Part shown: one piece after another, positions 9,498 to 27,431 of the stretch
Layout: every line of letters starts with the position of its first letter
Position numbering within the stretch: position 1 is the first letter of the stretch
Origin: an uncultured Candidatus Saccharibacteria bacterium
GTDB taxonomy: Bacteria; Patescibacteriota; CPR2; UBA1875; CAIMLA01
Assembly: GCA_964501135.1 (NCBI GenBank)
Contig: CAZCRI010000002.1
Span: forward strand, 29,644-93,643
Reading direction: 5' to 3'
Length of the DNA: 64,000 nucleotides
Notes under the pieces: generated by a model
The model's database searches: none
Seen by the model: the letters and a program-made list of their open reading frames with translations, nothing else
Told to the model about the DNA's origin: nothing
Translations under genes and position numbers: made by a program

Positions 9498-10845
9498 ATC
9501 CTAGATCTAAAATTTCGGTTCTAAGCCGATCAGAAGCTTCAAAGTCTTTATTATTCCTAGCTAGCCCTCGCTTCTCCAGTAGAACATTCACTTCGTTGGG
9601 AGTTTCGATTGTGCCACTGTCGGAAAGACCTAGGCCAAGCACACGGTCGCATTCTAGTAGTAATTTAAGGGCAGCATTGGCATCTTTTTCTGAGACACCG
9701 TGTACAAAAGCTTTATTCAATTCCTTAATAAATACAAATATTACAGCTAAGGCTTTTGGAGTATTTAGGTCATCATTTAGAGCAGCCAAAAAGTCTTCTC
9801 CGGCTTTTTTAGTGGCTTGTGCAAAGCCGTTAGATGTCATCTGTGATTCCTTGACACCACGAAGTTCGGCCACGGTCATTAATAATTTCTCGCGAGTATT
9901 TCTAGCCTGGATGATTGATTGGTCGGTAAAGTTCATCTTTTCCCGATAATGGGACATGAGACAAAGCATGCGAAAATCCAGAGGGTCTATCTGAAATTTA
10001 GTAACAATATCCCCTAGGGTGTAGAAGTTCTTTAATGATTTTGACATTTTGGCGCCATTTATCATTATATGTTCAGGATGAAACCATAGTTTTGCAAAGG
10101 GTTTGCCGGTACTAGCTTCACTTTGAGCAATTTCATTTTCATGATGTGGAAAGATTAAATCTACAGCTCCAGCATGTATGTCGATGGTGTCCCCAAGGTA
10201 GCGCATACTCATGGCCGAACATTCAATATGCCAGCCGGGGCGCCCCTCCCCAAACGGAGCTTCCCATGATGGTTCGACCGCCTTTTTTGCCTTCCAGAGG
10301 ACAAAGTCTTGAGCATTTTCCTTGTCATATTCGTCTTGATCGACTCGCGCTCCTTCTTTGAGTCCCGTAAAATCGAGATTTGCAAGCTTACCATACGCAG
10401 CGAATTTAGCGATTGAAAAATATATACTGCCATCATCTGACTTGTAGGCGAACCCCTTCTCTAAAAGATCAGAGATTAGAGTAATCATGGAGTCGATTTC
10501 CTCGGTTGCTTTGGGCATGTGCTCAGGAAGCTCGAAATTGATAGCTGCTAGATCATCAAGAAATAGTTTGGTGTATTTTTTACTAACTACGCTAATATCA
10601 GTTTGCTCATCGTTTGCCGACTTAATAATTTTGTCGTCAATATCAGTAATATTCATTACTTCGTCAATTTTGTAACCCAAAAACTCCAAGGTCCTACGAA
10701 GTAAATCCTCGTTAACGTAGGTTCTGAGATTACCAATATGCGCGTAGTTGTAGACGGTTGGTCCACAAATATACATCTTCACTGGATCGGTTTTCTCTTG
10801 TTGGAAATCCTCTTTCTGTTTGGTAAGCGTGTTGTAGAGTTTCAT
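9451..10845 (-). CDS. cysS: cysteinyl-tRNA synthetase
   Basis: HIGH (AHIGNLRTY) and KMSKS motifs, 464 aa. Confidence 0.9.
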   Translation of the reverse strand: MKLYNTLTKQKEDFQQEKTDPVKMYICGPTVYNYAHIGNLRTYVNEDLLRRTLEFLGYKIDEVMNITDIDDKIIKSANDEQTDISVVSKKYTKLFLDDLAAINFELPEHMPKATEEIDSMITLISDLLEKGFAYKSDDGSIYFSIAKFAAYGKLANLDFTGLKEGARVDQDEYDKENAQDFVLWKAKKAVEPSWEAPFGEGRPGWHIECSAMSMRYLGDTIDIHAGAVDLIFPHHENEIAQSEASTGKPFAKLWFHPEHIMINGAKMSKSLKNFYTLGDIVTKFQIDPLDFRMLCLMSHYREKMNFTDQSIIQARNTREKLLMTVAELRGVKESQMTSNGFAQATKKAGEDFLAALNDDLNTPKALAVIFVFIKELNKAFVHGVSEKDANAALKLLLECDRVLGLGLSDSGTIETPNEVNVLLEKRGLARNNKDFEASDRLRTEILDLGYEVEDTANGQKIRKI

Positions 10846-12587
10846 GTGAGATATCCTCCAGATTGAATTTCAAATAGTTTCGAATAGATCCCTTTTTGAG
10901 CTACAAGATCGCTGTGAGTCCCCATTTCCGAAATGCGTCCTTTGTCCATTACGACAATTATATCAGCTTTCATAACAGTAGATAGACGATGAGCGATGAT
11001 TATTGTGGTTTTACCATCAATTAGGCGCCACAAAGCATCTTGGATTAGCTGCTCGCTCTCTGAATCAAGACTAGAGGTGGCTTCATCCAGTACCAGAATC
11101 GGCGGATTTTTGAGGATTGCCCGCGCTATGTTAATACGTTGCTGCTCGCCTCCGGAGAGCTTAACTCCTCGCTCACCCACTACAGTCTCGTATTTATTTG
11201 GTAGCTTGGCAATAAATTGCTCTGCGTTCGCCTGTTTGGCGGCTTTTTCAATCTCGCTCCGCTTCGCATTTGGCCTGGAGTAGGCGATGTTCTCGGCTAC
11301 AGAGTTATTGAAGAGAATCGAGTCTTGTAAGACAACCCCAATGCCTTCTCTGAGCGATTTCTGGGTCACATCACAGACGTTTTGCCCGTCTATGGTAATT
11401 GTACCCTTCTGGGTGTCGTAGAAGCGAGAGAGCAGCTTTACGAGAGTCGTTTTGCCTGAACCACTTTTGCCCACAATAGCGAGAACTTTCCCAGCCGGAA
11501 CCTCCAAAGAAAGATTCTTTACTACCTTGTGGTCCTTATAGCCGAAAGTAACGTCCTTAAAGCTAATACTACCCTTTGTAACATTTAGTTTCTTTGCATT
11601 TGGAGTGTCTGTAATCTCTGACTCGGTGTCCAGAAGCTCAAAGACACGTTTGACGCTGCGCATTTTCTTTTGAACATCGTCAATAAGGCGAGTAATGTAC
11701 CATAGTGGCTGCATCGAGCGGTTTGTATATTGCCAGGCAAGGGTAAAGGCACCGAGGGTAATCTCCCCCGTAATAGTCCAATAAACGCCGAGCCCGATAA
11801 TGGCAATTTGTGTAAAGTCCATCGCAAGTAAGCGGAAGACATTCATAAATATTCTGCGCGTAACATATTTGATGTCGAGAACTATTGATTCAAGTAATTG
11901 GCTCACGAAAGCCTTGAGGTGACGATCCTCGGTAGCATAAGACTTGATGGTTTTAATGTTGATTATCGATTCGGTCATGATACCGCTAAGTTTCTCGTTT
12001 GAGTCCCTTGATTTGTCTTGAATCTGTAGTAATAGCGGTGAAAACTTTAGGCTGATTAAGATAAAGATTGGGGCACTTGCCATAAGAATCGTACCGAAAA
12101 TCCAGTTGACGGAGAAAAGGATACTGGCCGCAATCAGAATATAAATAAATTGAGGGATAATCTCAGTTAGGGTAGCTTCGATTATGTCGTTTAGCTCCCA
12201 AACACCCTTGTCGATGCGTTCTTTAATTTTACCAACGCTATTATTCTCAAAGTAATTTAGTGAAAGTGATTCAAGGTGTTCATAGACTCGACGGGATAAA
12301 ATTTCACGTGTCTTGTTGTACCACAAGACGGTATAGTAAAAGTTGATCTGGCCAAAGGCGTCGTTTGCAATCCAGAGAGTCGCGTAGAGACCAATTGCTT
12401 GCCAAAATGCCGGCGGCACTGCGTTTGATCCAGATTTTGCAGTCTCGCCAATCACGTCAAATAACATCTTGAAGGCCAGAGGAATTGCAACGTTAAAAGC
12501 GATCGAGACCGATACGGTCGCGAGCGCAATAAACATTAACTTTTTGTCGCTGGCAGCTAGTCTTAGGGCTCGCCAAAAATCACGCAT
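10842..12587 (-). CDS. ABC transporter, fused permease/ATPase (MsbA-like exporter)
   Basis: 6-TM N-terminal domain, Walker A GKSGSGKTT, signature LSGGEQQR, Walker B ILVLDEATS. Confidence 0.85.
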   Translation of the reverse strand: MRDFWRALRLAASDKKLMFIALATVSVSIAFNVAIPLAFKMLFDVIGETAKSGSNAVPPAFWQAIGLYATLWIANDAFGQINFYYTVLWYNKTREILSRRVYEHLESLSLNYFENNSVGKIKERIDKGVWELNDIIEATLTEIIPQFIYILIAASILFSVNWIFGTILMASAPIFILISLKFSPLLLQIQDKSRDSNEKLSGIMTESIINIKTIKSYATEDRHLKAFVSQLLESIVLDIKYVTRRIFMNVFRLLAMDFTQIAIIGLGVYWTITGEITLGAFTLAWQYTNRSMQPLWYITRLIDDVQKKMRSVKRVFELLDTESEITDTPNAKKLNVTKGSISFKDVTFGYKDHKVVKNLSLEVPAGKVLAIVGKSGSGKTTLVKLLSRFYDTQKGTITIDGQNVCDVTQKSLREGIGVVLQDSILFNNSVAENIAYSRPNAKRSEIEKAAKQANAEQFIAKLPNKYETVVGERGVKLSGGEQQRINIARAILKNPPILVLDEATSSLDSESEQLIQDALWRLIDGKTTIIIAHRLSTVMKADIIVVMDKGRISEMGTHSDLVAQKGIYSKLFEIQSGGYLT

Positions 12588-12640
12588 TTTTACTCCTTTG
12601 CATGGCCATTATATCTCAAAGTGGTCAGTAATTGTAGCTG

Positions 12641-13240
12641 TTAGTACTCTCGTCTACCCTCTAGGGCGCGGGAAAGAGTGACTTCATCGGCATACTCTAG
12701 GTCGCCACCTACCGGTAAACCTCGGGCTATTCTGGTAATAGAGACGCCATATGGCGAGATAATTTTCTGTAAATATAGGGCAGTGGTTTCACCTTCTAGG
12801 GTCGGGTTGGTCGCTATCACGAGCTCCTCGATGCCACCATCTTTTATTCTGGTGAGAAGCTGAGAAATAAAGAGCTCGTCCGGTCCGATGCCGTCAACTG
12901 GAGAGATTACTCCTCCCAGAACATGATACAGTCCTTTGTAGCTTCCAGATCGTTCAAGTGCAACAACGTCTAGTGGTTCTCCGACGACGCAGATCTTGCT
13001 AGAATCCCTAGATGTATCGTTGCAAATTGAACAAAGTTCTGAATCGGTAAAATTACAACAAACCTTGCAAAAGGTGATCCCCTCTTTTAGGTTGCTAGCC
13101 GCCGCTCCGAGGTCTTGCGCGCTCTTATCGGCTTTACGGAGCAGATAAAAAGTAAGCCTCTGTGCGGTCTTAGGGCCGACACCTGGAAGCTTTGCAAATT
13201 CATCAATTAGATTTTGCACGCTGGCGGGGATAATATTCAA
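12641..13240 (-). CDS. recR: recombination protein RecR
   Basis: 199 aa; HhH N-terminus (PGVGPKTAQR), C4 zinc finger, Toprim domain. Confidence 0.85.
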   Translation of the reverse strand: MNIIPASVQNLIDEFAKLPGVGPKTAQRLTFYLLRKADKSAQDLGAAASNLKEGITFCKVCCNFTDSELCSICNDTSRDSSKICVVGEPLDVVALERSGSYKGLYHVLGGVISPVDGIGPDELFISQLLTRIKDGGIEELVIATNPTLEGETTALYLQKIISPYGVSITRIARGLPVGGDLEYADEVTLSRALEGRREY

Positions 13241-13257
13241 GGCTTATCTCTCTGCGA

Positions 13258-13560
13258 TTATTGCATTCCCGGGAAACCGCCGAAATCACCAATTTCCTTC
13301 ATCAAGTTTGCGGAATATTCTTGGGATTTCTTGATTGAACTTTCTATCGCGCTCTTAATGTCCTTCTCTAAAACCTCTAGTTTCTCAATCTCAACGTCGT
13401 CTTTGTTTAGTACCACTTTTTGTACTTTTTGCTCACCATTGATAACAATCGTGACGGCGCCAGATTCGACGGTAAAGATTTCAGACTTCATTTTCTTCTG
13501 TATTTCACGAGCTTTTTTGATAAAATCAAGCTGCTCTTTTGCTTTTCCGAACATTGCCAT
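13258..13560 (-). CDS. ybaB: nucleoid-associated protein YbaB/EbfC
   Basis: 100 aa; conserved recR-ybaB-dnaX neighbourhood (dnaX is at 19.7 kb here). Confidence 0.75.
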   Translation of the reverse strand: MAMFGKAKEQLDFIKKAREIQKKMKSEIFTVESGAVTIVINGEQKVQKVVLNKDDVEIEKLEVLEKDIKSAIESSIKKSQEYSANLMKEIGDFGGFPGMQ

Positions 13561-13605
13561 AACAAAACCCCTTCTTAATAACAGAGTTTATTATACAAGA
13601 AGGGG
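13561..13605 (-). terminator. intrinsic terminator downstream of the GT-C glycosyltransferase gene
   Basis: CCCCTTCTT/AAGAAGGGG 9-bp stem followed on minus strand by TTTTGTT, immediately abutting the ybaB ATG. Confidence 0.6.
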
Positions 13606-13618
13606 TCGTGCTTGTAAA

Positions 13619-15421
13619 TTATTGCTTTTTGAGGTCGTAGATTAGGATAGAGCCACCAATATTTGTAATCGGCTTTTCAGAGTCTAGCCAAGCATAATCC
13701 ATACCGCCGTTAGCTTCCTTCTTCATCTTGGAATTTTGGTAAAAGGTAGCCGAGATAGCGAAGCAGCCGGTAGGTTTACCATTCTGGACGTGCCACTCAA
13801 TCATGCGATCACGACCAATGTAGTAAGCTGCTGGCATACTGCCTGGGAAGACATCAACATAAGTCTGGTACTGACACTTGTGTTCCTTGCTCATATCACT
13901 GGTCTTAATCCATTCGGAAAGGCGTTTAACATCCTGTCCCCAATCTAGATTCGAGTCAGTGAGATATTTGTAACCGTTCTGGTATCCGCCTACAAATTCG
14001 TTGAAATACGAAAGGTAGTGTGGGTAGGCAGAGAGCGAACCTAGGACGTACCAAACCGTTAACACTGGGATTAGTAGGGCGACGCTCAGGGCTTTCCAGT
14101 CCTTTAGGCCATTCTTAATTGCCGTGAAATCGATGAGACCAGTGAGTCTGGCTACCGCCACGAAAATGAATGGGAAAATCGGAAGCATGTAACGGATACC
14201 GAGGTTAATGCTCCCCTGCATGCCCATTACAAGTAAGACTAGCGGAAGCACCCAGAGATAGATCTCTGTGAACCAGCCATTCCATTGCAGTTTCTTACGG
14301 AAGATAAAGAGAAATGCCAAGAAGAAGAAAATCGGGATAGCTGTTTTTAGGGCGAGAACTACTGGGTAGTAATACCACCAACCCTTATTGGAGGTCATTC
14401 CAAGTAAGAAGGCGTCGTGACCACCCTCAACGTGGCCGGCAACCATTGAGAAGCCTAGTAACCACTGTGCAAGAGGCTTTGTGACTTGATTCCCTGACAT
14501 TCCGGCCAGAGTGTCTGCGACAACGGAATTACCTGGGATGGATTCATGGATAAGAGCACGTTGTACTTCTGCTGGCATATTCATTGTGTGGAAAAAGTAA
14601 AATCCCCACATCATAACAACGCCAGAGAGACAGATAATGGCAAATGAAACAAGAGCGGAAATAAAGCGCTTGGTAAGTTTCTGATCAAAAATACCTGTTA
14701 GTAGAGTAGTTTCTTTCTGGGTCCCCTTTCGAGCTAGCAGCATTAGGAAGATGATAATGTAGACTGGTCCCAGGATAGCGACAGAGAACTTGGTCACAAG
14801 GGCGATAAAGAAAGTGACCGCGGTTAGAAACATCCTCTTTTTGGTAGGTTTCTCAAGAAAATAGAAGAGTGAAAACAAATTAAGAAAAAGGGCGAATGAG
14901 ATGCCGAGATCGGTGGTGACAAATCTAGAGTGAGCGATAATGCTGGCGTCAAAAGCATAGAGAACTAACGCGAACAGCCCTGCTTTGACCCCAAATAGCT
15001 TTTTCGCCCAAATAAAGACCAAGAGGCCGAGAGTTAGGCTCAGAAGCATCATTGGAATGTGAGCAGCCTCTAGAATCTTAGAGGGGTCATTACCGGCGGT
15101 CTCGTAGATGAATTTCCAGCCCATTTGCCACTGGTTATTGATTACAGGTAAATTAGCCTTCCAGTAATCGTATGGAAACTTAAGATTCAAAAATAGCAAT
15201 GGTACCGCCGCCAAATCCTTGATCAGCGGTGGATGTTCTGGGTTCAGTCTGTAGTCACCAGTGGTGATATAGCTGTAGCCCGAAGGAATGTGCGCAATCT
15301 CATCGACAATTGCCGAGTCCCCTTTCGACGAGTAGAACATTGTAATAAACATGACCCCAAGAATCACTGGAACAAGCGCCCAGTACCAGTACTTTTTAAG
15401 TATTTCCATATTCCCCTCCAA
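13619..15421 (-). CDS. GT-C fold membrane glycosyltransferase (PMT/ArnT-like, GT39/GT83 family)
   Basis: 600 aa polytopic membrane protein; N-terminal loop DEIAHIPSGYSY...EHPPL matches the catalytic-loop layout of dolichyl/undecaprenyl-phosphate-sugar dependent transferases. Confidence 0.65.
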   Translation of the reverse strand: MEGNMEILKKYWYWALVPVILGVMFITMFYSSKGDSAIVDEIAHIPSGYSYITTGDYRLNPEHPPLIKDLAAVPLLFLNLKFPYDYWKANLPVINNQWQMGWKFIYETAGNDPSKILEAAHIPMMLLSLTLGLLVFIWAKKLFGVKAGLFALVLYAFDASIIAHSRFVTTDLGISFALFLNLFSLFYFLEKPTKKRMFLTAVTFFIALVTKFSVAILGPVYIIIFLMLLARKGTQKETTLLTGIFDQKLTKRFISALVSFAIICLSGVVMMWGFYFFHTMNMPAEVQRALIHESIPGNSVVADTLAGMSGNQVTKPLAQWLLGFSMVAGHVEGGHDAFLLGMTSNKGWWYYYPVVLALKTAIPIFFFLAFLFIFRKKLQWNGWFTEIYLWVLPLVLLVMGMQGSINLGIRYMLPIFPFIFVAVARLTGLIDFTAIKNGLKDWKALSVALLIPVLTVWYVLGSLSAYPHYLSYFNEFVGGYQNGYKYLTDSNLDWGQDVKRLSEWIKTSDMSKEHKCQYQTYVDVFPGSMPAAYYIGRDRMIEWHVQNGKPTGCFAISATFYQNSKMKKEANGGMDYAWLDSEKPITNIGGSILIYDLKKQ

Positions 15422-15433
15422 GAGTATTATTTT

Positions 15434-16333
15434 TTATTTATTGATAATATATTCGTTATATGTGTTGCCGAGTTTACGACGAGCATGCCTTCTAGAGTAC
15501 TTCCCCACCAATAGATTTCTCATAATGACTGCGATGTCAGTAAAAGAGCTCAAAATTGCCGAACTACCTACCTTTGAGCCTTCTTCATCAATCCACTGTA
15601 CCGGCACCTCGATAATTTTTAGCTTATACTTTTGGGCAATTGAAAGGTACTCCGTATCAAAGCCGAACCCGGGGATGGTCTGTAGAGATGCGAGGAGTTT
15701 TGTAACATCTTGGCGATAAAGTTTAAATCCGCAACGCTGATCGATGTAGCTTTGATTTAGAAAAACCGTGAAGAGAAAATTGCCACCGCGTGATACAAGC
15801 TGCCTAAAACGACCCTGTTTGCCGATAGCTTGATAGTCTTTGCTGTGGCCGAAAACCAAAACCTCAATGATGCTTTTAATGCCATGGAAGACCCCCTTGA
15901 ACCAGTTTGGCTTATATGGATGAGGATCTTTAATATACCTGGAACCCAAAACAATATCGTATTTGTCTACAAATTTTAGTAGTTTATCTATTTCCGTGAT
16001 TGGTGTTGAGTTGTCGGCATCCATGAACATGACGTACTTACCCTTTGCGTCTGCAAAGCCACGTTGAATACCTGCCCCCTTACCTTTTGGTTCGTTGACT
16101 CGGGGTTCTAAATATCTAAAATGTTTGATTTCTTCCGCATATTTCTTTGCAATATCGATAGACTTGTCGGTACTCTTATCGTCACTTAGAATCACTTCGC
16201 AACTAAATTTGGCGTTTCTCGTATATTCCTCGATAACCTTAAGTGTTTTCTCGATTCTCGCCTCTTCATTGAAAAATGAGATGATGATTGAGAGATAGAT
16301 TTCTTCTTCTGCCATAAGGCCTCCTTGATTCAA
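15434..16333 (-). CDS. GT2 polyprenyl-phosphate sugar synthase (GtrB/DPM1-like)
   Basis: 299 aa; GT-A fold motifs (SIIISFFNEE, DDKSTD, DADNS) and C-terminal TM helices. Confidence 0.75.
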   Translation of the reverse strand: MNQGGLMAEEEIYLSIIISFFNEEARIEKTLKVIEEYTRNAKFSCEVILSDDKSTDKSIDIAKKYAEEIKHFRYLEPRVNEPKGKGAGIQRGFADAKGKYVMFMDADNSTPITEIDKLLKFVDKYDIVLGSRYIKDPHPYKPNWFKGVFHGIKSIIEVLVFGHSKDYQAIGKQGRFRQLVSRGGNFLFTVFLNQSYIDQRCGFKLYRQDVTKLLASLQTIPGFGFDTEYLSIAQKYKLKIIEVPVQWIDEEGSKVGSSAILSSFTDIAVIMRNLLVGKYSRRHARRKLGNTYNEYIINK

Positions 16334-16343
16334 GTATAACTTG

Positions 16344-17585
16344 TTACTTTTTCAAATCTAGTGTTTTTGTATACATAGCTTGGACGGCTGGGTTCCCCTG
16401 CCAAGCGTAAAAGTATTTTTGAAAGTTGTAATAGACAGAAAGAAAGAGAAAAACTGAAAACAATAAAGTCATTACAACGCGTGCCGAGCGGTTGTAGGGG
16501 AAAGTTCGAACCCAGCTTGTTAGCAAGTAATCTAACATAATCGAGCTAAGGATAAAGATGGCCGGTAATAACAGAGCAACGTTAGCGATACTCTGTACTT
16601 TTGCAAATGAGATAATGATTACACCGAAAAGAACCCAAAGCAGGATGAATTGGTGTTTTCGCTTGCCACTATGAAAGAAGGCATAGACTATCCCGCAAAT
16701 GCTACTAACGGCCACAAAAGGATCCAGAATAGGCTCCAAGGCTACATTAATCGGTGAAATTGTCGCCGAGCCAGAAAAGAGGGTTAGTATGTTCTGACCC
16801 ACGTTAAGATAAAATGCTGCAATTGAGCCTGGTAAATAGGCTGTAATTATTGAACCGAGTGCGTTCAAGCAAAGAAAGAAATACAAGCCGATCGCAAATA
16901 GAATTGGTAGAGCAAGGATAATTAGCTCATATTTATAAAGAGTAAAAACCTTTTTGTTCTTTGCAATCATCGTAATGCTGGCGACAAAAATTAGAATTCC
17001 GGTAAGGACAAAGAGTGGGCTCAGAAATATACCCGCAGAGGCAAGTACGGCTGTGAGCAAGAACAACCATTTGTTTTTCTCCCTGAAAGCCGCTGTGGCC
17101 AAGTAAAGAATGGCCATTTGCAGTGCCAGAATAACGATTGTAATGTTTGTGACCCTCGAAAGAATCAGCATAGTGGTATTTGTGGCCATCAGAAGCGTCG
17201 CAATCAAAGCTACTTGTTTATTAAACCAGCTACGGGTAAATAGGAAGAAGAAAATAGAAGCGACGATTCCAATTAGGCTGGAAAATAATCGGAGATAGAG
17301 CGGACTATAGGCAGCTAAATGACCTAGAATGGCTACCTTATAGTAAAAAAGCGCTTCACTTACAAGCTTTGTCGGAGCAATCCAGTGGTTTGCAGCAATC
17401 TTCTGCCCGTTTGCAAGTAATGTTACCTCTTCGCTAGAAAAGCCTTTGAAGCTAGTGAGTCCCCAAAATCTCCAGAGGGCCCCCAAAAAAATCACGACCA
17501 AAGTGAGTAACAAGAATTGGTTTTCGGAAGCGAAGGTAGAGAACCTTTCGCGTAAAGAAGATAAATACTGAATTACTTTGTTCAT
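16344..17585 (-). CDS. second GT-C fold membrane glycosyltransferase (ArnT/PMT-like)
   Basis: 413 aa, >=10 predicted TM helices, position within the Gtr-like cluster. Confidence 0.5.
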   Translation of the reverse strand: MNKVIQYLSSLRERFSTFASENQFLLLTLVVIFLGALWRFWGLTSFKGFSSEEVTLLANGQKIAANHWIAPTKLVSEALFYYKVAILGHLAAYSPLYLRLFSSLIGIVASIFFFLFTRSWFNKQVALIATLLMATNTTMLILSRVTNITIVILALQMAILYLATAAFREKNKWLFLLTAVLASAGIFLSPLFVLTGILIFVASITMIAKNKKVFTLYKYELIILALPILFAIGLYFFLCLNALGSIITAYLPGSIAAFYLNVGQNILTLFSGSATISPINVALEPILDPFVAVSSICGIVYAFFHSGKRKHQFILLWVLFGVIIISFAKVQSIANVALLLPAIFILSSIMLDYLLTSWVRTFPYNRSARVVMTLLFSVFLFLSVYYNFQKYFYAWQGNPAVQAMYTKTLDLKK

Positions 17586-17636
17586 AGCTATATTGTAGCA
17601 ATGATTGCTCTTTTTGTGAATCAGAGAACTTAGACG

Positions 17637-18299
17637 TTAGGCCTTTTTGTCTGCCTTAAAAACCCAGATCTTATAGAGTACAAAGTTGAAAAGCATAGCA
17701 GAGAGAGAACCAAAGATTGTGGCGTAATTTGCCCAAACCTTATCGGCAATTCCAGAATATAGGGTTGGGCCTATCTGGGCAATCATATAGGCAAGAGCAA
17801 CATTTACTGCCATACCAAGTGCTGTGGCAATAACGAATTTGGTGATCTCCTTGTTTCCCGATTGCTTATCACTCCCCTTGAAGACCCACAGCTTATTCCA
17901 GAAATAGCTATTTGTCGCAGCAATAATAAATGAAATTCCCTTGTAAAAGGCAAAATAGATACCAGTGCTAAAACCAGTAAAAAGGATCAGTAGGTTCACA
18001 ATCCCCATGTCTACAAGCCAATTTAAGCCACCAGCCTCACCAAATTTTACAAAATTATATAGAAAGGGCACAAATTTACCCAAGAATCGGCCAACAACTA
18101 TTCCTGCCAGACAGAGAAGTGTGAAGCCCACAACGATTATTGGCCAGCTTACTGTTACTCCAAAGAAAGTTTGTCCCAAGAAACCTAGATTACCAGCAAC
18201 AATGGCTGCGAAAAATCCAGCCAAAAGACCAAGTAGTCCGGCGGCCGCAAGATCAAACGATAAAGTTGCTACAGTACTTTTTGATGACTTTGCCATCAT
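17637..18299 (-). CDS. GtrA-family flippase-like membrane protein with N-terminal TM extension
   Basis: C-terminal ~125 aa has the GtrA layout (FVKFGEAGGLNWLVDMGIVNLL ... KIWVFK); extra ~90 aa N-terminal hydrophobic region. Confidence 0.6.
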   Translation of the reverse strand: MMAKSSKSTVATLSFDLAAAGLLGLLAGFFAAIVAGNLGFLGQTFFGVTVSWPIIVVGFTLLCLAGIVVGRFLGKFVPFLYNFVKFGEAGGLNWLVDMGIVNLLILFTGFSTGIYFAFYKGISFIIAATNSYFWNKLWVFKGSDKQSGNKEITKFVIATALGMAVNVALAYMIAQIGPTLYSGIADKVWANYATIFGSLSAMLFNFVLYKIWVFKADKKA

Positions 18300-18343
18300 A
18301 CCCTCCTATTAATAACAAAATTATAGCACCCCTAGAACAAAAT

Positions 18344-19693
18344 CTATATCTTTTGTGATGTTTCGTGTTTCTTATCAAGGTTTGTAAATAGCATTTGCTC
18401 TGGTTTGAAGTAGAGCTCTACTTGTCCTACAGGTCCATTACGGTGCTTGCGGATCAGGACATCTGCTATGTTCTTACGTTCTGAGTCTTTATCATAATAG
18501 TCATCGCGGTAAATAAACATTACCACGTCGGCGTCTTGCTCGATAGAACCTGATTCACGCAAGTCTGAGAGCTGAGGTCGACGGTCTGGGCGACTTTCCA
18601 CGGCACGGGAGAGCTGAGAAAGAGCAATCACTGGTACATTAAGTTCACGTGCCAGACCCTTGAGCGAACGAGAAATCTCACTCACCTCTTCTACACGACT
18701 ATTACTGGTATTACCCTGCATCAACTGAAGGTAGTCGATGATAACTAGTCCTAGGCCATGCTCGGATTGTAAGCGTCTGGCTTTGGTGCGCATTTCGAGT
18801 ACGTTAATACCTGCAGAATCATCGAAGTACAATGGTGCTTCGGAAAGTTTGGCCATGGCCTCTCCGATTCGACCAAAGTCGGCATCGGATAGGTTAGCGT
18901 TTCGGAGTTTCCAGGAGTCCACATTGGCTTCGGAGCAGAGCAAACGGTCAACTAGCTGTTCTTTACTCATTTCGAGTGAGAATATCGCGACAGGAATACC
19001 TTCATGAATTGCTACATTTTGAGCAATATTGATCGCGAGGGATGATTTACCCATAGACGGGCGGGCGGCAAGAATTACCAAGTCAGAGTTCTGCAGTCCT
19101 GCAAGTAAGTTATCGAGATCTCTAAAGCCAGTCGGAACGCCACGAATCTGATCTTTGTTGTTGTGGAGTTCGTCAAGACGATCGAAACTATCGGTTAGAA
19201 TGTCCTTGATTGCAATAAAGCTCTCTTTGGTATGCTTCTGAGAAACCGCAAAGATTGCTTGCTCGGCACGATCCAAAATCTCCGGGATCTCTTTTTCTTC
19301 GTGGAAGGCAATATCGGAAATTTCGGTAGAGGCGTGGATAAGGCGACGCAAAATTGATTTGGAGGCTACTATTTTGGCATAATGCACTATATTTGATGCC
19401 GATGGTACCGAGCTGGCCAATGTAGCAATGTAGCTTCCGCCGCCCACAACATCAAGCTTCTTCATCGCTTCTAGCTTGTTTGTAAGTGTAACGACGTCAA
19501 TTGGTTCACGGTGCTCAAAAAGGTTGAGCATGGCCGCATAGATAATACCGTGAACGTCTTTGTAGAAGTCATCCGCAGTAATTATGTCTGCTACCTTAAT
19601 CAGGGCGTCCTTGTCGAGCAGGATCGCTCCTAGTAGGGAAATTTCTGCCTCAACGTTCTGGGGCGGAATGTTTGGATTTAGGTTTGCCATCAT
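18344..19693 (-). CDS. dnaB: replicative DNA helicase DnaB
   Basis: 449 aa; Walker A GARPSMGKSS, RecA-like C-terminal domain. Confidence 0.9.
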   Translation of the reverse strand: MMANLNPNIPPQNVEAEISLLGAILLDKDALIKVADIITADDFYKDVHGIIYAAMLNLFEHREPIDVVTLTNKLEAMKKLDVVGGGSYIATLASSVPSASNIVHYAKIVASKSILRRLIHASTEISDIAFHEEKEIPEILDRAEQAIFAVSQKHTKESFIAIKDILTDSFDRLDELHNNKDQIRGVPTGFRDLDNLLAGLQNSDLVILAARPSMGKSSLAINIAQNVAIHEGIPVAIFSLEMSKEQLVDRLLCSEANVDSWKLRNANLSDADFGRIGEAMAKLSEAPLYFDDSAGINVLEMRTKARRLQSEHGLGLVIIDYLQLMQGNTSNSRVEEVSEISRSLKGLARELNVPVIALSQLSRAVESRPDRRPQLSDLRESGSIEQDADVVMFIYRDDYYDKDSERKNIADVLIRKHRNGPVGQVELYFKPEQMLFTNLDKKHETSQKI

Positions 19694-21222
19694 TCTAGTA
19701 TTTCTCCACCAAAAATATTTATTGCGTCATCGAGAAGGTCATCTCCCCCACTTTCCGCTTTTGTAATTACTGATTTTTGACTAAGTGAATTTCGAAGGAC
19801 ACATTTGACTCGGTACTTCTTCCCGTAAACCTTAGTCAAAGTATTCTCAACAACCTGGCGATTCTTAGCGTCTTCGATTCTTTCCTTATGAAACTTATAA
19901 GGAAAGGCCAAGGTTACTGTATCGGCGGTGAATTCAGGCTCACAGACCTTTAGTACAGCATGAATCGAGTTGTTAGTGCTTTTAACTTCTAGCAAGAAGT
20001 GCTGCCATTTGCCACGATCATCCATGGTGGCTGTGTCTACCATAGGCTTGTTCTCGACCTTTTCGTTTGTTGGTTTCGCACTAGCAGCTACAGGTTTCTG
20101 ATGTATAACGCCTGCGTAACCCGTACATGCCTTGATTGTCGCTACTTCAAGTGAGAGCTGATGCAACCCGGAATACTTGTAGAGGGAGTCGTTTTTGATA
20201 TAGGTATCCATAAGAGTGATGAGGTCTGCTGTAGTCGTTGTTTTTAGAATATCAACGTATAATTTCTCCGAGGCAGGCGAAAGTCCAATCTCAGAGATAC
20301 CGGTAGCGCTTGCCAAAGACAGTCTACGAAGAACCTCTACAATATTTTTAAGAAATTGTGCCGGTTCGTAGCCGTTTTCGAGTGCTTTACCTAGGACTTC
20401 AAGGGCAGCTGCGGTCTCTTTTTTTACAACTGCAAAAACGTAATCTTCCACCAAGCTGTAGTCACTAATTCCTAGGAGGTTCTCCATATCAGAAGCGGCG
20501 ATCTCGCCCTTTTTCATATCAGCAACTTGATCAAGCATCGAGATTGCGTCACGAAATCCACCTTCACTCGCTCGAACAATGAGTTCGAGTGCCTTATCGT
20601 CAATCATAATCTTTTCCTGGTCGGCAATGAAGCGTAACCGCTCGGAAAGAGCTTTCTCGTTGATTTGATGGAAGTCAAAGCGTTGGCATCTAGATTGAAT
20701 GGTCGGAATAATCTTTTGGATCTCGGTGGTAGCTAATATAAACACTGTATGCTCTGGTGGTTCCTCGAGTGTTTTTAGGAGGGCGTTGAAAGAAGATTTA
20801 GAAAGCATATGCGCTTCATCGATTATGTAAACTTTGTACTTTAGATTTGTGGGGGCAAACTTGGCACGTTCGATAATAACTTCTCGAATATTATCTACTT
20901 GGGTATGAGAAGCAGCGTCGATTTCGATAATATCAACCGTAGAACCACTCGTAATGAGTTTACACTTTTCGCAGGTGTTGTCCGGGTTCCCCGCAACATT
21001 GTGTTCACAGTTTATCGCCTTGGCCAAAATACGAGCAGCAGATGTCTTCCCTACTCCTCTAGGTCCGTGGAATAAATAGGCATGAGCAAAACGCCCTTCA
21101 GCAACTGAATTCTTCAGGGTTTTTGTAATATGATCTTGCCCATAGAGGTCGTCAAAATCAACAGATCGGTATTTTCGATACAGGGCTACTTTGGCCAAAA
21201 TCCACCTCAAATATATAATCAA
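19690..21222 (-). CDS. dnaX: DNA polymerase III subunit gamma/tau
   Basis: AAA+ clamp-loader motifs (GPRGVGKTS, DEAHML, SRC); stop codon TGA; 4-nt overlap with dnaB. Confidence 0.9.
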   Translation of the reverse strand: MIIYLRWILAKVALYRKYRSVDFDDLYGQDHITKTLKNSVAEGRFAHAYLFHGPRGVGKTSAARILAKAINCEHNVAGNPDNTCEKCKLITSGSTVDIIEIDAASHTQVDNIREVIIERAKFAPTNLKYKVYIIDEAHMLSKSSFNALLKTLEEPPEHTVFILATTEIQKIIPTIQSRCQRFDFHQINEKALSERLRFIADQEKIMIDDKALELIVRASEGGFRDAISMLDQVADMKKGEIAASDMENLLGISDYSLVEDYVFAVVKKETAAALEVLGKALENGYEPAQFLKNIVEVLRRLSLASATGISEIGLSPASEKLYVDILKTTTTADLITLMDTYIKNDSLYKYSGLHQLSLEVATIKACTGYAGVIHQKPVAASAKPTNEKVENKPMVDTATMDDRGKWQHFLLEVKSTNNSIHAVLKVCEPEFTADTVTLAFPYKFHKERIEDAKNRQVVENTLTKVYGKKYRVKCVLRNSLSQKSVITKAESGGDDLLDDAINIFGGEILE

Positions 21223-21249
21223 TAATAGTTGGCCTATGTATTATAGGTT

Positions 21250-21282
21250 AAAACAAGAGTCTTTTCGAGCCTAAAAAGACTC
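21250..21282 (-). terminator. intrinsic terminator downstream of the 312-aa hypothetical gene
   Basis: GAGTCTTTT/AAAAGACTC 9-bp stem, minus strand followed by TTGTTTTAAC. Confidence 0.55.
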
Positions 21283-21328
21283 ATTTTAGGTTATAAACAA
21301 GCTTTCTTGGTGGAAAAGCTGGGGAAAG

Positions 21329-22267
21329 CTAGATTTCTAGCTCAGCGATTGGCTGATCTTGCTTGTTTGGCGTAGGAGTTGAATCAACCGCACTAAGATC
21401 AGAGGCCACCATACCGTCTGGTGGGAGCTGAGCTGCAGTGGGAGAGACAAATTCAGGAGTGGTTATATTCTTGAGATTATTCTTGAGATTCTCTAGAAGT
21501 TGCTCATCGCTGAGGTTTTCATCGCCTTGGGAAAATTCAATCTTTGGTGCCAAGGGATCTTCTTTGACTGGTTCAGGTGCTACGGCTGGCTCAGTCGTTA
21601 CTTCTGTCTCTGTTTCCACAGCTGGGGTAGTTTGTACTTCAGGAACTTCTATATTGGCTGCCGGCTCCATAATTGTCTCAGGCGTCGTGATTTCAGTAGG
21701 CGTAGACTTCTCTGAGGTGTCGTCAGCGGATTCAATGTTCGCACCCTTGGAAATTACATTCTCTAGGGCAGCCCAGCTTGCTTCTTGACCCGCAGGAAGG
21801 AGGACGGTTACCGAATCACCCGGCTCAGCTTTGTAGAAAGTGATGCTTGCAGTTAACACTTTGTACTTCTTGCCTTCAGCGAGAACTACGTAGCTGCTTC
21901 CGTCGAGGCTAAGTGTCCCAACCAGACTTTTTCTTTCTGCTGGGCGGATCTGTTTAAAGATAAAGCTACCATCTGCAGCTATTGTTAGTTTCAGGCCATC
22001 ACCCTCGACAAGCTTTGATTTTGAAGCATAATTGGCAGGAACTGGATAATTTTTGCCGTCACTAGCTATCATTTCTTCGCCGTTAAAAACACCCTCAATA
22101 ATGCTTTCATTTAGCATCTCAGGGGCGCCGCCAGCTTCTTCTTTAGTTGGTTCACTATTTATCGTGGCAGGCTTTCCAATATACTCTCGAAGCATATTAC
22201 GGGCTGATGCCAGGTTACCTTCAGCGGCGTCCAGTAGTTTCTGGATTTTAGCTAATTTTTCATCCAT
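21329..22267 (-). CDS. hypothetical protein with acidic Pro/Thr/Glu-rich low-complexity C-terminal half
   Basis: 312 aa; N-terminal coiled-coil-like region, central beta-rich region, C-terminal TPE-rich repeats. Confidence 0.5.
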   Translation of the reverse strand: MDEKLAKIQKLLDAAEGNLASARNMLREYIGKPATINSEPTKEEAGGAPEMLNESIIEGVFNGEEMIASDGKNYPVPANYASKSKLVEGDGLKLTIAADGSFIFKQIRPAERKSLVGTLSLDGSSYVVLAEGKKYKVLTASITFYKAEPGDSVTVLLPAGQEASWAALENVISKGANIESADDTSEKSTPTEITTPETIMEPAANIEVPEVQTTPAVETETEVTTEPAVAPEPVKEDPLAPKIEFSQGDENLSDEQLLENLKNNLKNITTPEFVSPTAAQLPPDGMVASDLSAVDSTPTPNKQDQPIAELEI

Positions 22268-25134: not shown

Positions 25135-25656
25135 TTACTTTTGTTCTGCGACTGCGTTTAAAACGTTTACCAGACCGCGGATGTTGCCAGCAAGGACGTT
25201 TACCATACCAGACATTGGGGCAGCAATGGTACCAACCAGTTGGCCCAGAAGCTGTTCTCTGCTAGGAAGACTGGCGAGAGATTTGACCATGATGTCACTG
25301 ATCTCTTTTCCTTCTAGGACGCCGCCTACAATAGCAAATTTGTCATTTTTCTTGGAGTATTCGAAAGCGATTTTCGCTGGAGCAACCTCGTCTTCCATAC
25401 CAAATGCAACTGCAAATGGATGGTTGTGAGTGGCGTCCTTTGAAAGCTCGATTCCAGCTTCCTTTGAGGCAATTTGGAATAAGGTGTTCTTTACAACCTT
25501 GAGTTCCACACCCTCAGCACGAAGCTTGTTTCGAACTTCGTCTAGCTCTTCTACAGTAAGACCACGATAGTCAGTAAAAACAACCGATTTTGCTGATTTT
25601 AGCTTGTCTACCAGTGCCGATACTAGCTCTTCTTTTTTCTGTCGTGTAATTGCCAT
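25135..25656 (-). CDS. rplJ: 50S ribosomal protein L10
   Basis: L10 family; start placed at MAITRQKKEEL preceded by GGGAGAGGGAGAG SD; the 41-aa upstream extension in the track ORF is most likely 5' leader. Confidence 0.85.
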   Translation of the reverse strand: MAITRQKKEELVSALVDKLKSAKSVVFTDYRGLTVEELDEVRNKLRAEGVELKVVKNTLFQIASKEAGIELSKDATHNHPFAVAFGMEDEVAPAKIAFEYSKKNDKFAIVGGVLEGKEISDIMVKSLASLPSREQLLGQLVGTIAAPMSGMVNVLAGNIRGLVNVLNAVAEQK

Positions 25657-25855
25657 TTTCTCTCCCTCTCCCTTCTGCCATTTTGACCGAAGCGGAGAAA
25701 TCTTTTTAGTGCCTAGGCACCCTTGTCGACCCAATAAAAAATCTTCGATTTCTCGAAGACACATTGGAATAAAATTCATAAAGATTATGCGTTTTACTCC
25801 CTCGGTAGCGGATTAAGCCCTGTGGGCAGCTACTGTCTCCGGAAATTACCTACGT

Positions 25856-25884
25856 ATTTTAGCAAAATATAGCTGTAAGGTCAA
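25856..25884 (-). promoter_or_regulatory. sigma70-like promoter of rplJ-rplL with ~190-nt structured leader
   Basis: minus strand TTGACC (25884-25879), 17 nt spacer, TAAAAT (25861-25856); leader contains hairpins (TCTTCGA/TCGAAGA, GTGCCTAGGCAC palindrome), candidate L10 autoregulatory leader. Confidence 0.5.
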
Positions 25885-25960: not shown

Positions 25961-26341
25961 CTACTGGAGGCGGAGTTGCAGCTCGTGATTGAACTTGTCC
26001 TTCTCGGACTGCGGCACAGCGTCGTACCAGGCGCTCGTCGCTTCGAAGTAGGAATCGCGCAACTCGGCCGGAATGAGGTCATTGGTACAGATAGCAAGGT
26101 AGAGCTTGCTGCCTCCTACCGTGAGGAGCTTCTCGCTGTCCGGCCGTTCCGGGTTGTCACTTGCCACTGCAAGTGCCTGCGCATCCTGCAGGGCGCTGCG
26201 GAGCTGAGAACGATAGAGCTTGCTGATCGACTCATCGCTGCTCTGCAGGACGTCCGCAGCGAACTCCTCCATAAGCGCGAGAGCACCGCGCTTCTGCGCG
26301 ATCTCAGCTTCGATCTGCTCGGGCTTTCGGCTGTCCGCCAT
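25961..26341 (-). CDS. hypothetical protein (126 aa), GC-rich island gene
   Basis: Start at MADSRKPEQ preceded by AGGAGA SD (6-nt spacer); GC-rich; antisense + ORF is Leu/Arg-rich and looks like a GC artefact. Confidence 0.5.
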   Translation of the reverse strand: MADSRKPEQIEAEIAQKRGALALMEEFAADVLQSSDESISKLYRSQLRSALQDAQALAVASDNPERPDSEKLLTVGGSKLYLAICTNDLIPAELRDSYFEATSAWYDAVPQSEKDKFNHELQLRLQ

Positions 26342-26407
26342 GACGAATCTCCTGTTCCTCAAGGTTTGGATAGGTGGTACTGTGTCTTGCGACGCCTAAA
26401 TATAACA

Positions 26408-26797
26408 TTATTGCTTTGTGTGGTCAAGAAGGGCAGATGAGTACAAAGTCCTCCCTAAGAGCCTATATTTGCCTGAGAGAGCCCTTGCAGCCGCAATTTC
26501 ACTGCGCATTTGTGCAAATTTCAAGTCATTACCCTTACAAAAGAACTCGCGGCAAACCTGGGGTCGCCTAGCATGAATGCTACATTTCTCATTTTCTAAG
26601 TAGAAACAGCTTCCATCACTATTCTGCATAATGATATTTGCACCGCATTCAGTAGCTAAATCAAAATCATCTATAATCTCGAGCTGAGAGAAAGTTGTTT
26701 TGAACTCTCCCGACCGGTATTCTTCTTCGTTCAAGTTTATAAGAAACAGCTGGCAGCAGATGCCGCAAGAATCACATTTATTTGATATTATTTCCAT
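26408..26797 (-). CDS. YkgJ/UPF0153-family putative zinc/iron-chelating protein (CxxCxxCC)
   Basis: CDSCGICCQ motif plus downstream C..C..H..C cluster typical of PF03692. Confidence 0.6.
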   Translation of the reverse strand: MEIISNKCDSCGICCQLFLINLNEEEYRSGEFKTTFSQLEIIDDFDLATECGANIIMQNSDGSCFYLENEKCSIHARRPQVCREFFCKGNDLKFAQMRSEIAAARALSGKYRLLGRTLYSSALLDHTKQ

Positions 26798-26828
26798 CAC
26801 CCCATTCTATCAGTAAACTAGCATATCC

Positions 26829-26857
26829 TTGAAACAATATGTAATAAATGCTATATT
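26829..26857 (+). promoter_or_regulatory. sigma70-like promoter for + strand island gene
   Basis: TTGAAA (26829-26834), 17 nt, TATATT (26852-26857); followed by GGAGG SD at 26892. Confidence 0.5.
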
Positions 26858-26903
26858 ACCTTGTCACTCACCGTGGCAACTTCCAGGGAATGGAGGTGAG
26901 CTT

Positions 26904-27365: not shown

Positions 27366-27431
27366 CGCCCAAAGCGCACGCACTTGTACTCCCGTACGAT
27401 GGCGCTGCACTTTGGGCGCTTTTCGTTATAT
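27364..27431 (+). terminator. intrinsic terminator (11-bp stem + T-tract), possibly bidirectional
   Basis: AGCGCCCAAAG ... CTTTGGGCGCT with inner GTAC-tccc-GTAC hairpin, followed by TTTTCGTTATAT. Confidence 0.65.

Follow-up and report, generated by a model that had tools for sequence, protein, structure and literature searches.

A probable lipid-carrier-dependent glycosylation cluster in a Patescibacterium with a non-canonical GT-C-fold protein at a fixed dnaB/ybaB-recR slot

Four adjacent genes in the window, the whole 64,000-nt stretch of DNA that was analysed, probably encode a lipid-carrier-dependent surface glycosylation pathway, in which a GT2 enzyme would supply a lipid-linked sugar to a GtrA-family protein and then to a GT-C-fold protein, A, with a further GT-C-fold protein, C, as second transferase. 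Two features go further than the original prediction: C is without an invariant Asp in its DE pair, and its gene is fixed at the slot between dnaB and ybaB-recR in the loci examined.

Results

Gene content and conservation of the locus

Four minus-strand neighbours had been predicted at positions 13619-18299, and the open-reading frames coincide with these coordinates exactly (Table 1). All are co-directional, with intergenic gaps of 10-51 nt within the cluster. Each gene has hundreds to thousands of homologues and the gene order is repeated in ten related loci, indicating that the four frames are genuine genes; the relatives are MAGs of Patescibacteria/Saccharibacteria, in agreement with the assigned organism. 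A search of all four proteins against NCBIfam returned no model at its curated cut-off, and function is therefore not transferable by orthology for any of them.

Table 1. Positions of the cluster genes, their flanking genes and the motif codons in the window
Feature	Position	Strand	Extent or basis
GtrA-family gene	17637..18299	minus	220 aa ORF
Protein C gene (GT-C fold)	16344..17585	minus	413 aa ORF
GT2 gene	15434..16333	minus	299 aa ORF; probably 293 aa, as in the public call, ATG at 16315
Protein A gene (GT-C fold)	13619..15421	minus	600 aa ORF; probably 596 aa, as in the public call, ATG at 15409
dnaX, upstream frame	19690-21222	minus	ORF and synteny
dnaB, upstream frame	18344-19693	minus	ORF and synteny
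ybaB, downstream frame	13258-13560	minus	ORF and synteny
recR, downstream frame	12641-13240	minus	ORF and synteny
Protein C E52-E53 codons	17427..17432	minus	translation
GT2 D105-A-D107 codons (DxD; metal and nucleotide-sugar binding motif)	16013..16021	minus	translation
Protein A D40-E41 codons (DE motif, first outward loop)	15299..15304	minus	translation
LCP ligase elsewhere in the window	52650-54086		

Synteny was followed with tblastn and Pfam-labelled neighbours across fifteen related loci, and C lies between dnaB and ybaB-recR in every one. Wherever a related locus reaches far enough upstream, the dnaX-dnaB pair adjoins the cluster, and ybaB-recR adjoins it in every related locus. The order GtrA-C-GT2-GT-C(s) was found in ten Patescibacteria loci, which encode and co-conserve a GT-A synthase, a GtrA flippase-type protein and a GT-C together; the GT2 gene directly follows C in all ten, and they include candidate division CPR2 (GT2 identity ~45%, C identity about 29-31%). 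In four other loci C sits alone in the slot from dnaB to ybaB and neither a GtrA nor a GT2 gene is nearby, and a fifth, cut upstream, shows C-ybaB-recR, indicating that C has a function that does not need the adjacent genes. The GtrA, GT2 and other GT-C gene(s) vary with the lineage, some lineages having them and others lacking them or having exchanged them, and the GtrA gene has been exchanged even between close relatives. The four-gene cluster of the original prediction stands as a set of adjacent genes whose order is kept in ten loci, but not as a single evolutionary unit, as C alone is fixed at the slot.

The four genes could be neighbours through nothing more than inherited order in a streamlined genome, and the housekeeping block dnaX-dnaB ... 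ybaB-recR around them, in which order is conserved regardless of function, would fit this explanation, as would the solitary C genes and the swapping of GtrA. We consider it highly improbable, since GtrA, a polyprenyl-phosphate-type GT2 and GT-C are the exact parts of a known pathway (PMC8035078), since around C these parts are either jointly present (ten loci) or jointly absent (four), and since an A-type GT-C is also paired with an ALG5-like GT2 in an unrelated, non-CPR locus.

The GT2 enzyme and the GtrA-family protein

The GT2 has a GT-A fold and matches Pfam PF00535 (Glycos_transf_2) at 93 bits. Among solved structures, its nearest relatives are without exception synthases of polyprenyl-phosphate sugars, the best being the P. 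furiosus Dol-P-Man synthase (5mlz, 1e-9), ArnC (3.7e-7) and GtrB sll0501 (1.2e-5), in agreement with the GtrB/DPM1-like enzyme that had been predicted. The motifs D105-x-D107, GSRY, SRGGN, DQRCGFK and FDTE are invariant, and the DxD, conserved throughout 33 family members, aligns with the DAD of the P. furiosus enzyme. Hydropathy analysis found no hydrophobic segment across the 299 aa, and thus neither a TM helix nor a C-terminal anchor, so the likeness to GtrB holds for the solved relatives but not for the membrane anchor that GtrB possesses. An anchor-less GT2 resembles human DPM1, mycobacterial Ppm1 and GacI, forms requiring a partner. All 19 NCBIfam matches fall far under their cut-offs, with no equivalog among them, the best being PgfS, at 63.5 bits where the cut-off is 500. 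The enzyme is presumably a polyprenyl-phosphate hexose synthase. Its donor sugar is possibly glucose, based on the automated JGI name of its relatives, dolichyl-phosphate beta-glucosyltransferase, and on motifs that we take to resemble those of ALG5.

The GtrA-family protein was matched by Pfam PF04138 (GtrA_DPMS_TM) at 68.3 bits (cut-off 26.1) over residues 85-214 and all 117 of 117 profile positions. Hydropathy places two hydrophobic segments, 17-35 and 54-72, ahead of this domain, so that the 220-aa protein has two TM helices preceding a 4-TM core (residues 85-214). When it was aligned with seven syntenic GtrA genes, a long subtype, comprising the window protein and two relatives (L006 and L008), separated from a short one, and the N-terminal TM extension foreseen for this GtrA protein is therefore common to relatives. 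The protein is presumed to be the polyprenyl-phosphate-sugar translocator, an activity that is largely inferred even for characterised GtrA members (PMC8035078, PMC12992685).

Protein A and the nature of its acceptor

Protein A has the GT-C membrane fold and matches Pfam PMT_2 at 31 bits against a cut-off of 26.1. It combines long outward loops with a 137-aa C-terminal outer domain, an alpha/beta unit with an invariant S-x-x-DWGQ motif. Across 62 sequences, with identities as low as 37%, D40-E41, directly after TM1, does not vary, and the same holds for D35, H44, R58, N60, P61, E62, H63 and K68, so that the first-loop motif reads as an invariant DE-x-x-H. We presume that A is the transferase to the final acceptor. 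No MIR domain was found in A with Pfam; to our knowledge, bacterial Pmt enzymes likewise lack one. Fold scores did not separate PMT, OST, ALG and ArnT types, those for STT3B, ALG12 and ArnT being nearly equal to those for PMTs. A homologue with 57% identity, on a 3.59-Mb non-CPR contig, adjoins the ALG5-like soluble GT2 gene mentioned above, at a locus that also holds a Wzm/Wzt polysaccharide exporter, GT4 enzymes and a PIG-L deacetylase.

These results bear on whether the module is chiefly one for protein O-glycosylation, like actinobacterial Ppm1/Pmt or streptococcal GtrB-PgtC2 and Pgf, in which Ser/Thr residues of pilins, adhesins, wall enzymes or other secreted or membrane-anchored proteins would receive a hexose from A and perhaps from C. 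We regard this as possible but doubtful. NCBI names relatives 'glycosyltransferase family 39 protein', the top NCBIfam match of the GT2 comes from a protein-glycosylating operon, Pgf likewise has one GT-A and two GT-C proteins (bioRxiv 10.1101/2024.05.05.592596), and pilin O-glycosylation has been predicted in Saccharibacteria (bioRxiv 10.1101/2024.11.25.624915). However, the fold scores favour PMTs hardly more than STT3B, ALG12 or ArnT, the PgfS match is far below its cut-off, A has no MIR domain by Pfam, its close non-CPR homologue lies within a polysaccharide-export locus, and a Ser/Thr-rich disordered tract was present in 0 of the 9 window proteins screened, six of which are envelope proteins.

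Protein C, a GT-C-fold protein with a divergent DE pair

Protein C is a membrane-only, ArnT-like protein with the GT-C fold and ~11 TM helices. Its Pfam PMT_2 score of 23.9 bits is slightly under the cut-off of 26.1, and its profile matches ArnT at E=2e-10. The chain ends about 17-28 residues after the last TM helix, leaving no C-terminal outer domain; the relatives of C comprise one class of 385-430 aa and another of 473-530 aa with an extra C-terminal outer domain of ~100 aa, in a family of 1656 clusters at E<=1e-10 among 1.84 billion representatives. R99 and R144 are nearly invariant and share the predicted outer face with E53. Most of the best-conserved residues (W120, W358, F362, P363, N365) map to the face predicted to be cytoplasmic, an unusual location for the active site of a GT-C enzyme.

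E53, the aligned counterpart of the Glu in the GT-C DE motif, does not vary among 66 diverse relatives, and position 52, the catalytic-Asp column, is occupied by S (14), D (13), A (11), P (5), E (4) and others (n=66), with Glu in the window; three independent alignments agree on this register. A GT-C catalytic loop had been predicted for both large membrane proteins, and A has it in full, while C has it by half, through the Glu alone. The catalytic status of C is putative because the Asp position of the pair is variable. This Asp is essential in ArnT (D55) and Streptomyces Pmt (D113), and in S. coelicolor Pmt the D113A variant is inactive and E114A active (PMC8698208). Judged by these alignments, C is a non-canonical GT-C protein and, without the Asp on which ArnT and Pmt depend, it may not be a transferase.

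If C is instead an accessory with the GT-C fold, it could recruit or activate the GT2 at the membrane, or have a part in binding, handover or recycling of the polyprenyl-phosphate carrier, and A or its substitutes would be the sole transferase. The unconserved Asp and the strong conservation on predicted cytoplasmic loops are consistent with such a role, as is a GT2 that has no membrane anchor and whose gene directly follows C in every full locus; soluble synthases with membrane partners have precedents in GacI/GacJ (PMC8035078) and Ppm1/Ppm2 (Baulard 2003, as cited in PMC6031116). We nevertheless find this rather unlikely, since E53, R99 and R144 are conserved as expected of a lipid-phosphate-sugar site, since four loci, and the fifth cut upstream, hold C without an adjacent GT2, and since the outer domain of many longer relatives is typical of acceptor-binding GT-C enzymes. 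A broader reading, which we hold to be unlikely, makes C a Patescibacteria-wide GT-C-fold family without the canonical Asp that is either a core envelope factor, for instance in polyprenyl-phosphate(-sugar) handling or scaffolding, or a transferase with a new Glu-based mechanism and a lipid-linked acceptor essential to the host-dependent cells. In either case, lineages would have assembled interchangeable GtrA, GT2 and GT-C accessories around C.

Discussion

The results lend support to the overall reading of the original prediction, in which these genes serve lipid-carrier-dependent extracytoplasmic glycosylation. In the pathway that we favour, the soluble GT2, at the inner membrane face, would load polyprenyl phosphate with one hexose from a nucleotide-sugar donor, our best guess for the hexose being glucose, and the GtrA-family protein would move the lipid-linked sugar to the outer face. 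Protein A, which has an intact DE motif together with long outward loops and an outer domain, would use this lipid-linked sugar as donor to decorate an acceptor outside the cytoplasm, with a cell-wall glycopolymer as the most likely candidate and surface proteins as the alternative; the LCP ligase and the peptidoglycan synthases encoded in the window make a wall-linked glycopolymer plausible. Protein C would act as a further transferase that draws on the same donor and modifies a lipid-linked acceptor anchored in the membrane, as the membrane-only GT-C enzymes among its structural matches (ALG3, PimE and GPI mannosyltransferase I) have acceptors that are lipid-linked. Systems of a GT-A, a GtrA flippase and a GT-C are known, including variants with a soluble GT-A (PMC8035078), and Pgf is a precedent for one GT-A serving alongside two GT-C proteins (bioRxiv 10.1101/2024.05.05.592596).

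Patescibacteria (CPR) make up a large part of bacterial diversity, most of it uncultivated, and because they live attached to host cells, the chemistry of their surface is of central importance to them. Glycosylation in the group has been called 'unexplored' in one study of Saccharibacteria (bioRxiv 10.1101/2024.11.25.624915). The locus is a candidate for envelope-decorating machinery that is compact, conserved and accessible to genetics, for which tools are now available in Saccharibacteria (PMC10633639). With its divergent catalytic motif and unusually rigid genomic position, the C family could reveal what part of the DE motif is really needed by a GT-C enzyme, or uncover a non-catalytic use of the fold.

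Comparison with known systems

The Ppm1/Pmt (GT39) systems of Actinobacteria and the eukaryotic PMTs (6p2r, 9e61; PMC8698208) also use a separate polyprenyl-phosphate sugar synthase, and the catalytic domain of mycobacterial Ppm1, soluble like the GT2, depends on a partner in the membrane. As differences, A has no MIR domain by Pfam and ends in a distinct 137-aa alpha/beta domain, the cluster includes a GtrA gene, and the sugar may be glucose instead of mannose; sequence searches against solved structures did not have a PMT among their matches. S. mutans Pgf (PgfS, PgfM1, PgfE, PgfM2) and streptococcal GtrB-PgtC2 (PMC5856776; bioRxiv 10.1101/2024.05.05.592596) share the arrangement, a single operon encoding one GT-A together with two polytopic proteins of GT-C type, but the membrane proteins of Pgf belong to the YfhO family, Pgf has an epimerase and no GtrA, and the match of the GT2 to PgfS is sub-threshold.

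The Gram-negative ArnC/ArnT system (GT83; ArnT structure 5ezm/5f15), which uses undecaprenyl-phosphate-Ara4N, follows the same logic of synthase, flip and GT-C transfer, and its ArnC is matched by the GT2. It differs in that the essential D55 of ArnT aligns with a variable position in the C family, that C of the window clade is without the ArnT periplasmic domain and the GT2 without the ArnC TM helices, and that the 64,000 nt of the window contain no lipid A biosynthesis gene that we could see. The type-III PfDPMS (5mlz), the best solved relative of the GT2, is a GT2 catalytic domain fused to a GtrA-like 4-TM domain that may flip the product (PMC5526996, PMC12992685). The same two modules are separate genes in the cluster, with C between them, and the DAD is followed by N-S-T rather than L-Q; the polar-pocket motifs of PfDPMS are, according to the same work, absent from GtrA proteins generally.

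The Gram-positive three-component systems CsbB/GtcA/YfhO, GtlA/GtcA/GtlB, L. lactis CsdAB-CflA and S. pyogenes GacI/J/K/L (PMC8035078; PMC7389260; PMC5836110) likewise combine a GT-A/GT2 polyprenyl-phosphate sugar synthase, a GtrA-family protein and a GT-C active on the outside. Several GT-C proteins can use one donor and one flippase in these systems, as in the proposed pathway, and a soluble GT-A variant exists in GacI. In contrast, the GT-C proteins of the cluster are of PMT_2/ArnT-like lineage and not YfhO, one of them without the conserved Asp; the TM-less GT2 is encoded without a small GacJ-like partner gene; the GtrA protein is longer by two TM helices; and the cluster belongs to a Patescibacterium, where it lies inside the dnaX-dnaB/ybaB-recR block.

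Gene layout and domain assignments

The four minus-strand open-reading frames lie precisely where they were originally predicted (13619-18299), are separated by gaps of 10-51 nt, and encode a GtrA-family protein presumed to be a translocator, a membrane protein (C), a GT2 enzyme resembling polyprenyl-phosphate sugar synthases, and a larger membrane protein with an outer domain (A). None of the four proteins scored above the curated cut-off of any NCBIfam model. Scans of 12500-21500 returned 18 promoters compared to 16.2 in shuffled sequence and nine terminators compared to 7.9, an excess in neither case, so transcription units cannot be drawn from these scans.

Coordinates of the cluster, its neighbors, and other features (window positions unless a locus is named)
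Feature	Coordinates	Strand	Assignment or position
GtrA-family protein, 220 aa	17637-18299	-	Pfam GtrA_DPMS_TM, 68.3 bits, residues 85-214
C, 413 aa	16344-17585	-	Pfam PMT_2, 23.9 bits, slightly under 26.1 cut-off
GT2, 299 aa	15434-16333	-	Pfam Glycos_transf_2, 93 bits
A, 600 aa	13619-15421	-	Pfam PMT_2, 31 bits, above 26.1 cut-off
dnaX	19690-21222		immediately upstream of cluster, with dnaB
dnaB	18344-19693		immediately upstream of cluster, with dnaX
ybaB	13258-13560		immediately downstream of cluster
recR	12641-13240		immediately downstream of cluster
ABC exporter	10842-12587		immediately downstream of cluster, with ybaB and recR
312-aa protein	21329-22267		between TGT and dnaX
214-aa ORF	25135-25779
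L10 leader	25727-25860		RF00557, 62.8 bits
Raised G+C	26000-32000		0.49-0.52 vs about 0.44
PIF1-like helicase	28018-29253
GIY-YIG nuclease-domain protein	29721-30314
S-adenosylmethionine synthetase, 334 aa	31422-32426
SAM riboswitch	32498-32598		Rfam RF00162, 49.7 bits
278-aa polytopic membrane protein	51807-52643		after LCP ligase gene; no Pfam match
LCP-family (LytR-CpsA-Psr) ligase	52650-54086		LytR_C domain
C, minimal locus L016	6001-7425
C, minimal locus L017	5239-6426
C, minimal locus L018	4428-5615
C, minimal locus L021	5247-6410
EamA/DMT-family transporter, L002	5074-5934		between GtrA and C
GtrA, L003	7497-7949		short subtype, 150 aa
A-homologue locus, L012	7001-8773 and 11169-11921		with ALG5-like soluble GT2

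C occupies a fixed slot

Loci taken from the genome collection and from contig look-ups of homologues fell into two states. The full state, dnaX-dnaB-GtrA-C-GT2-GT-C(s)-ybaB-recR, is found in the window, L002, L003, L004, L006, L007, L008, L020, L010/L011 of candidate division CPR2, and the partial locus L005. The minimal state, dnaX-dnaB-C-ybaB-recR, has no GtrA, GT2, or second GT-C and is found in four loci, while a further locus cut upstream (L019) reads C-ybaB-recR. C holds the dnaB/ybaB-recR slot in 15 of the 15 related loci examined, and its 29-30% full-length identity and shared motifs across loci are sequence features by which orthology of these C genes is supported. The slot 3′ of GT2 is variable. 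In L003-L005, L007, L010, and the window its occupant is A; elsewhere it holds one (L020) or two (L002, L006, L008) different GT-C proteins of about 500-570 aa, each DE-bearing.

Several other features were noted around these loci. In minimal loci L016, L017, and L021, recR is followed by a DHH phosphoesterase gene and cysS; GT4 genes lie near the minimal locus in L017 and L021; and L10/L12 genes lie directly upstream of dnaX in the minimal-locus relatives. The 312-aa protein has no Pfam match, a Thr/Pro/Glu-rich C-terminal half, and neither a TM helix nor a signal peptide; its position is kept in 6/7 tblastn-checked loci (L002-L004, L006, L007; L005 is too short), and L010/L011 carry a similar-sized gene without a Pfam match there. 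Elsewhere in the window, the 214-aa ORF begins within the L10 leader, the raised-G+C stretch holds the helicase and nuclease-domain genes and is possibly mobile or foreign DNA, and the SAM riboswitch lies directly 5′ of the S-adenosylmethionine synthetase gene, whose product appears short.

The two GT-C proteins

Single-sequence searches of A and C against solved structures gave nothing meaningful and an A-family profile gave no match, leaving fold comparison and the C-family profile as the only informative approaches. The best 21 fold matches of A are all GT-C-fold proteins; its GT-C fold is certain, and these matches do not separate its sub-type. The original prediction was to be refuted if both large proteins lacked the DE/DxD motif of the first outward loop of GT-C enzymes, and A has it: its Asp-Glu (DE) pair, D40-E41, lies directly after TM1 and does not vary among 62 relatives with identities as low as 37%, within a strongly conserved loop that also contains D35, H44, R58, N60, P61, E62, H63, and K68. 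The outward loops of A measure 86 and 83 aa, and its 137-aa C-terminal outer domain carries an invariant S-x-x-DWGQ motif.

The A family is large (>2381 matches) and not limited to CPR (Patescibacteria). A homologue with 57% identity is encoded on the 3.59-Mb non-CPR contig L012 (ERZ25039477 contig_2226). Neighboring genes there specify polysaccharide export (Wzm/Wzt), GT4 enzymes, and a PIG-L deacetylase, as well as a soluble GT2 with DTQCGFK and 30% identity to the window GT2. The A type and the ALG5-like GT2 type are thus paired independently in L012. Such a close homologue in a genome too large for CPR suggests horizontal exchange of A-type GT-C proteins between CPR and other bacteria, and the gene context in L012 favors a glycan polymer as the acceptor of A.

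C is only distantly related to A (hhalign 67% with narrow and 97% with broader profiles). When 1.84 billion cluster representatives were searched by profile, 8683 relatives emerged, 1656 of them at E<=1e-10 and 199 at E<=1e-30, in two length classes: membrane-only proteins of about 385-430 aa, and proteins of about 473-530 aa with an additional C-terminal domain. Window C falls in the former class; it has ~11 TM helices and ends in a 17-28-residue tail. Only E53 and F362 are invariant among 66 diverse members (17-33% identity). Three independent alignments, to a syntenic DE-bearing GT-C reading GLHPDE, to the A-family profile, and to C. metallidurans ArnT reading GPDE (E=2.1e-10), match E53 to the Glu in DE and variable position 52 to the Asp. 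In C, therefore, the Glu half of the motif stood and the Asp half did not: position 52 is S in 14 members, D in 13, A in 11, P in five, E in four, and other residues in the remainder, and window C reads E52-E53. In characterized relatives this Asp is critical, as D55 of ArnT is essential and the D113A variant of S. coelicolor Pmt is inactive while E114A is active (PMC8698208). C is on this count a divergent GT-C. The near-invariant R99 and R144 are on the predicted outer face and fit lipid-phosphate binding, while the majority of the other conserved residues (W120, W358, F362, P363, N365) are on predicted cytoplasmic loops.

The best 21 fold matches of C are likewise all GT-C-fold, and among them is the non-catalytic PIG-U/GAB1. 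That C is a non-catalytic partner, with a GT-C fold in an accessory role, we regard as unlikely. The matches also include the membrane-only enzymes ALG3, PimE, and GPI mannosyltransferase I. Because these use lipid-linked acceptors, we tentatively favor for C the role of a second transferase with a lipid-anchored acceptor, a reading to which we give somewhat less than even probability.

The GT2 enzyme and the GtrA slot

The nearest solved structures to GT2 are P. furiosus Dol-P-Man synthase (1e-9), ArnC (3.7e-7), and GtrB sll0501 (1.2e-5), every one a polyprenyl-phosphate sugar synthase, and the motifs D105-A-D107, GSRY, SRGGN, DQRCGFK, and FDTE are invariant in 33 relatives. Many relatives are named dolichyl-phosphate beta-glucosyltransferase in automated JGI annotation, and we take the motifs DAD-x-S-T and QCGFK to be ALG5-like, as a lead only. 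Compared to the GT2 of L012, the CPR GT2 has a ~31-aa insertion (residues about 137-175) that includes an amphipathic, hydrophobic stretch, NWFKGVFHGIKSIIEVLVFG, which could be a membrane-interface element. No TM segment was found anywhere in the protein, unlike the membrane-anchored GtrB, ArnC, CsbB, and PfDPMS. GT2 resembles instead anchor-less synthases that need a partner in the membrane, as GacI needs GacJ (PMC8035078) and Ppm1 needs Ppm2 (as cited in PMC6031116). C might then be merely the membrane anchor of GT2, which always adjoins it, but this reading is weakened by the four loci, and a fifth cut upstream, in which C stands alone, and it stays only as an alternative.

The predicted extra N-terminal TM extension of the GtrA protein was confirmed, with two TM helices preceding the Pfam domain. 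When GtrA genes from eight syntenic loci were aligned, a long subtype (213-221 aa; window, L006, and L008) separated from a short one (150-161 aa), in which the TM3-TM4 loop differs. The nearest genome, L003 (DnaB 99% and GT2 94% identical), has the short subtype, and its GtrA is only 28% identical to that of the window despite 81-99% identity in the neighboring genes; the window protein has higher identity to its counterparts in L006 (57%) and L008 (40%), two genomes that are more distant. By these identities, the GtrA slot has been exchanged between very close relatives. Small transporters of the ArnE/ArnF type are flippases of Und-P-Ara4N in the Arn pathway. In L002, the inserted EamA/DMT-family transporter could serve as an additional or substitute translocator.

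Envelope setting and proposed roles

The closest loci in species-representative genomes belong to Patescibacteria and 'Candidatus Saccharibacteria' MAGs, among them JTS-AC303, whose DnaB is 99% identical to that of the window. The window encodes a class A PBP, PBP2, RodA, MreB, and the LCP-family ligase, indicating that the cell has a peptidoglycan wall, probably with an attached polymer. The ligase implies a wall-attached glycopolymer as candidate acceptor. No lipid A genes were seen within the window, a single window of the genome, and an LPS/lipid A (ArnT-type) role was considered unlikely and set aside given the Patescibacteria affiliation. Protein O-glycosylation was the other alternative; no Ser/Thr-rich disordered tract that could serve as an acceptor emerged from a screen of nine window proteins (three of them besides PBP1a, PBP2, LCP, HtrA, signal peptidase, and RodA).

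In the proposed pathway, GT2 would load a hexose onto polyprenyl phosphate at the inner face, the GtrA protein would translocate the lipid-linked sugar to the outer side, and A would pass the sugar to an outer acceptor, for which the LCP gene and the non-CPR L012 locus lead us to prefer a wall glycopolymer over proteins.

Comparison with known systems

Full-text literature searches found no paper joining Patescibacteria with GT-C or Saccharibacteria with GtrA, the main text of a Patescibacteria Tn-seq paper does not mention the cluster genes, and a pilus study describes glycosylation in Saccharibacteria as 'unexplored' (bioRxiv 10.1101/2024.11.25.624915). The parts of the cluster, here read from genes, match multi-component transmembrane glycosylation systems (see the review PMC8035078), and the overall glycosylation pathway is unsurprising. 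Less expected are the Glu-only GT-C family, the fixation of C between dnaB and ybaB-recR, and the swappable accessory genes around it. The working logic is like that of CsbB/GtcA/YfhO, GacIJKL, ArnC/ArnT, Ppm1/Pmt, and Pgf, but the cluster is a member of none of these, since its GT-C proteins are PMT_2/ArnT-like and not YfhO, its GT2 is anchor-less, its NCBIfam scores are below cut-off, and C is without the Asp.
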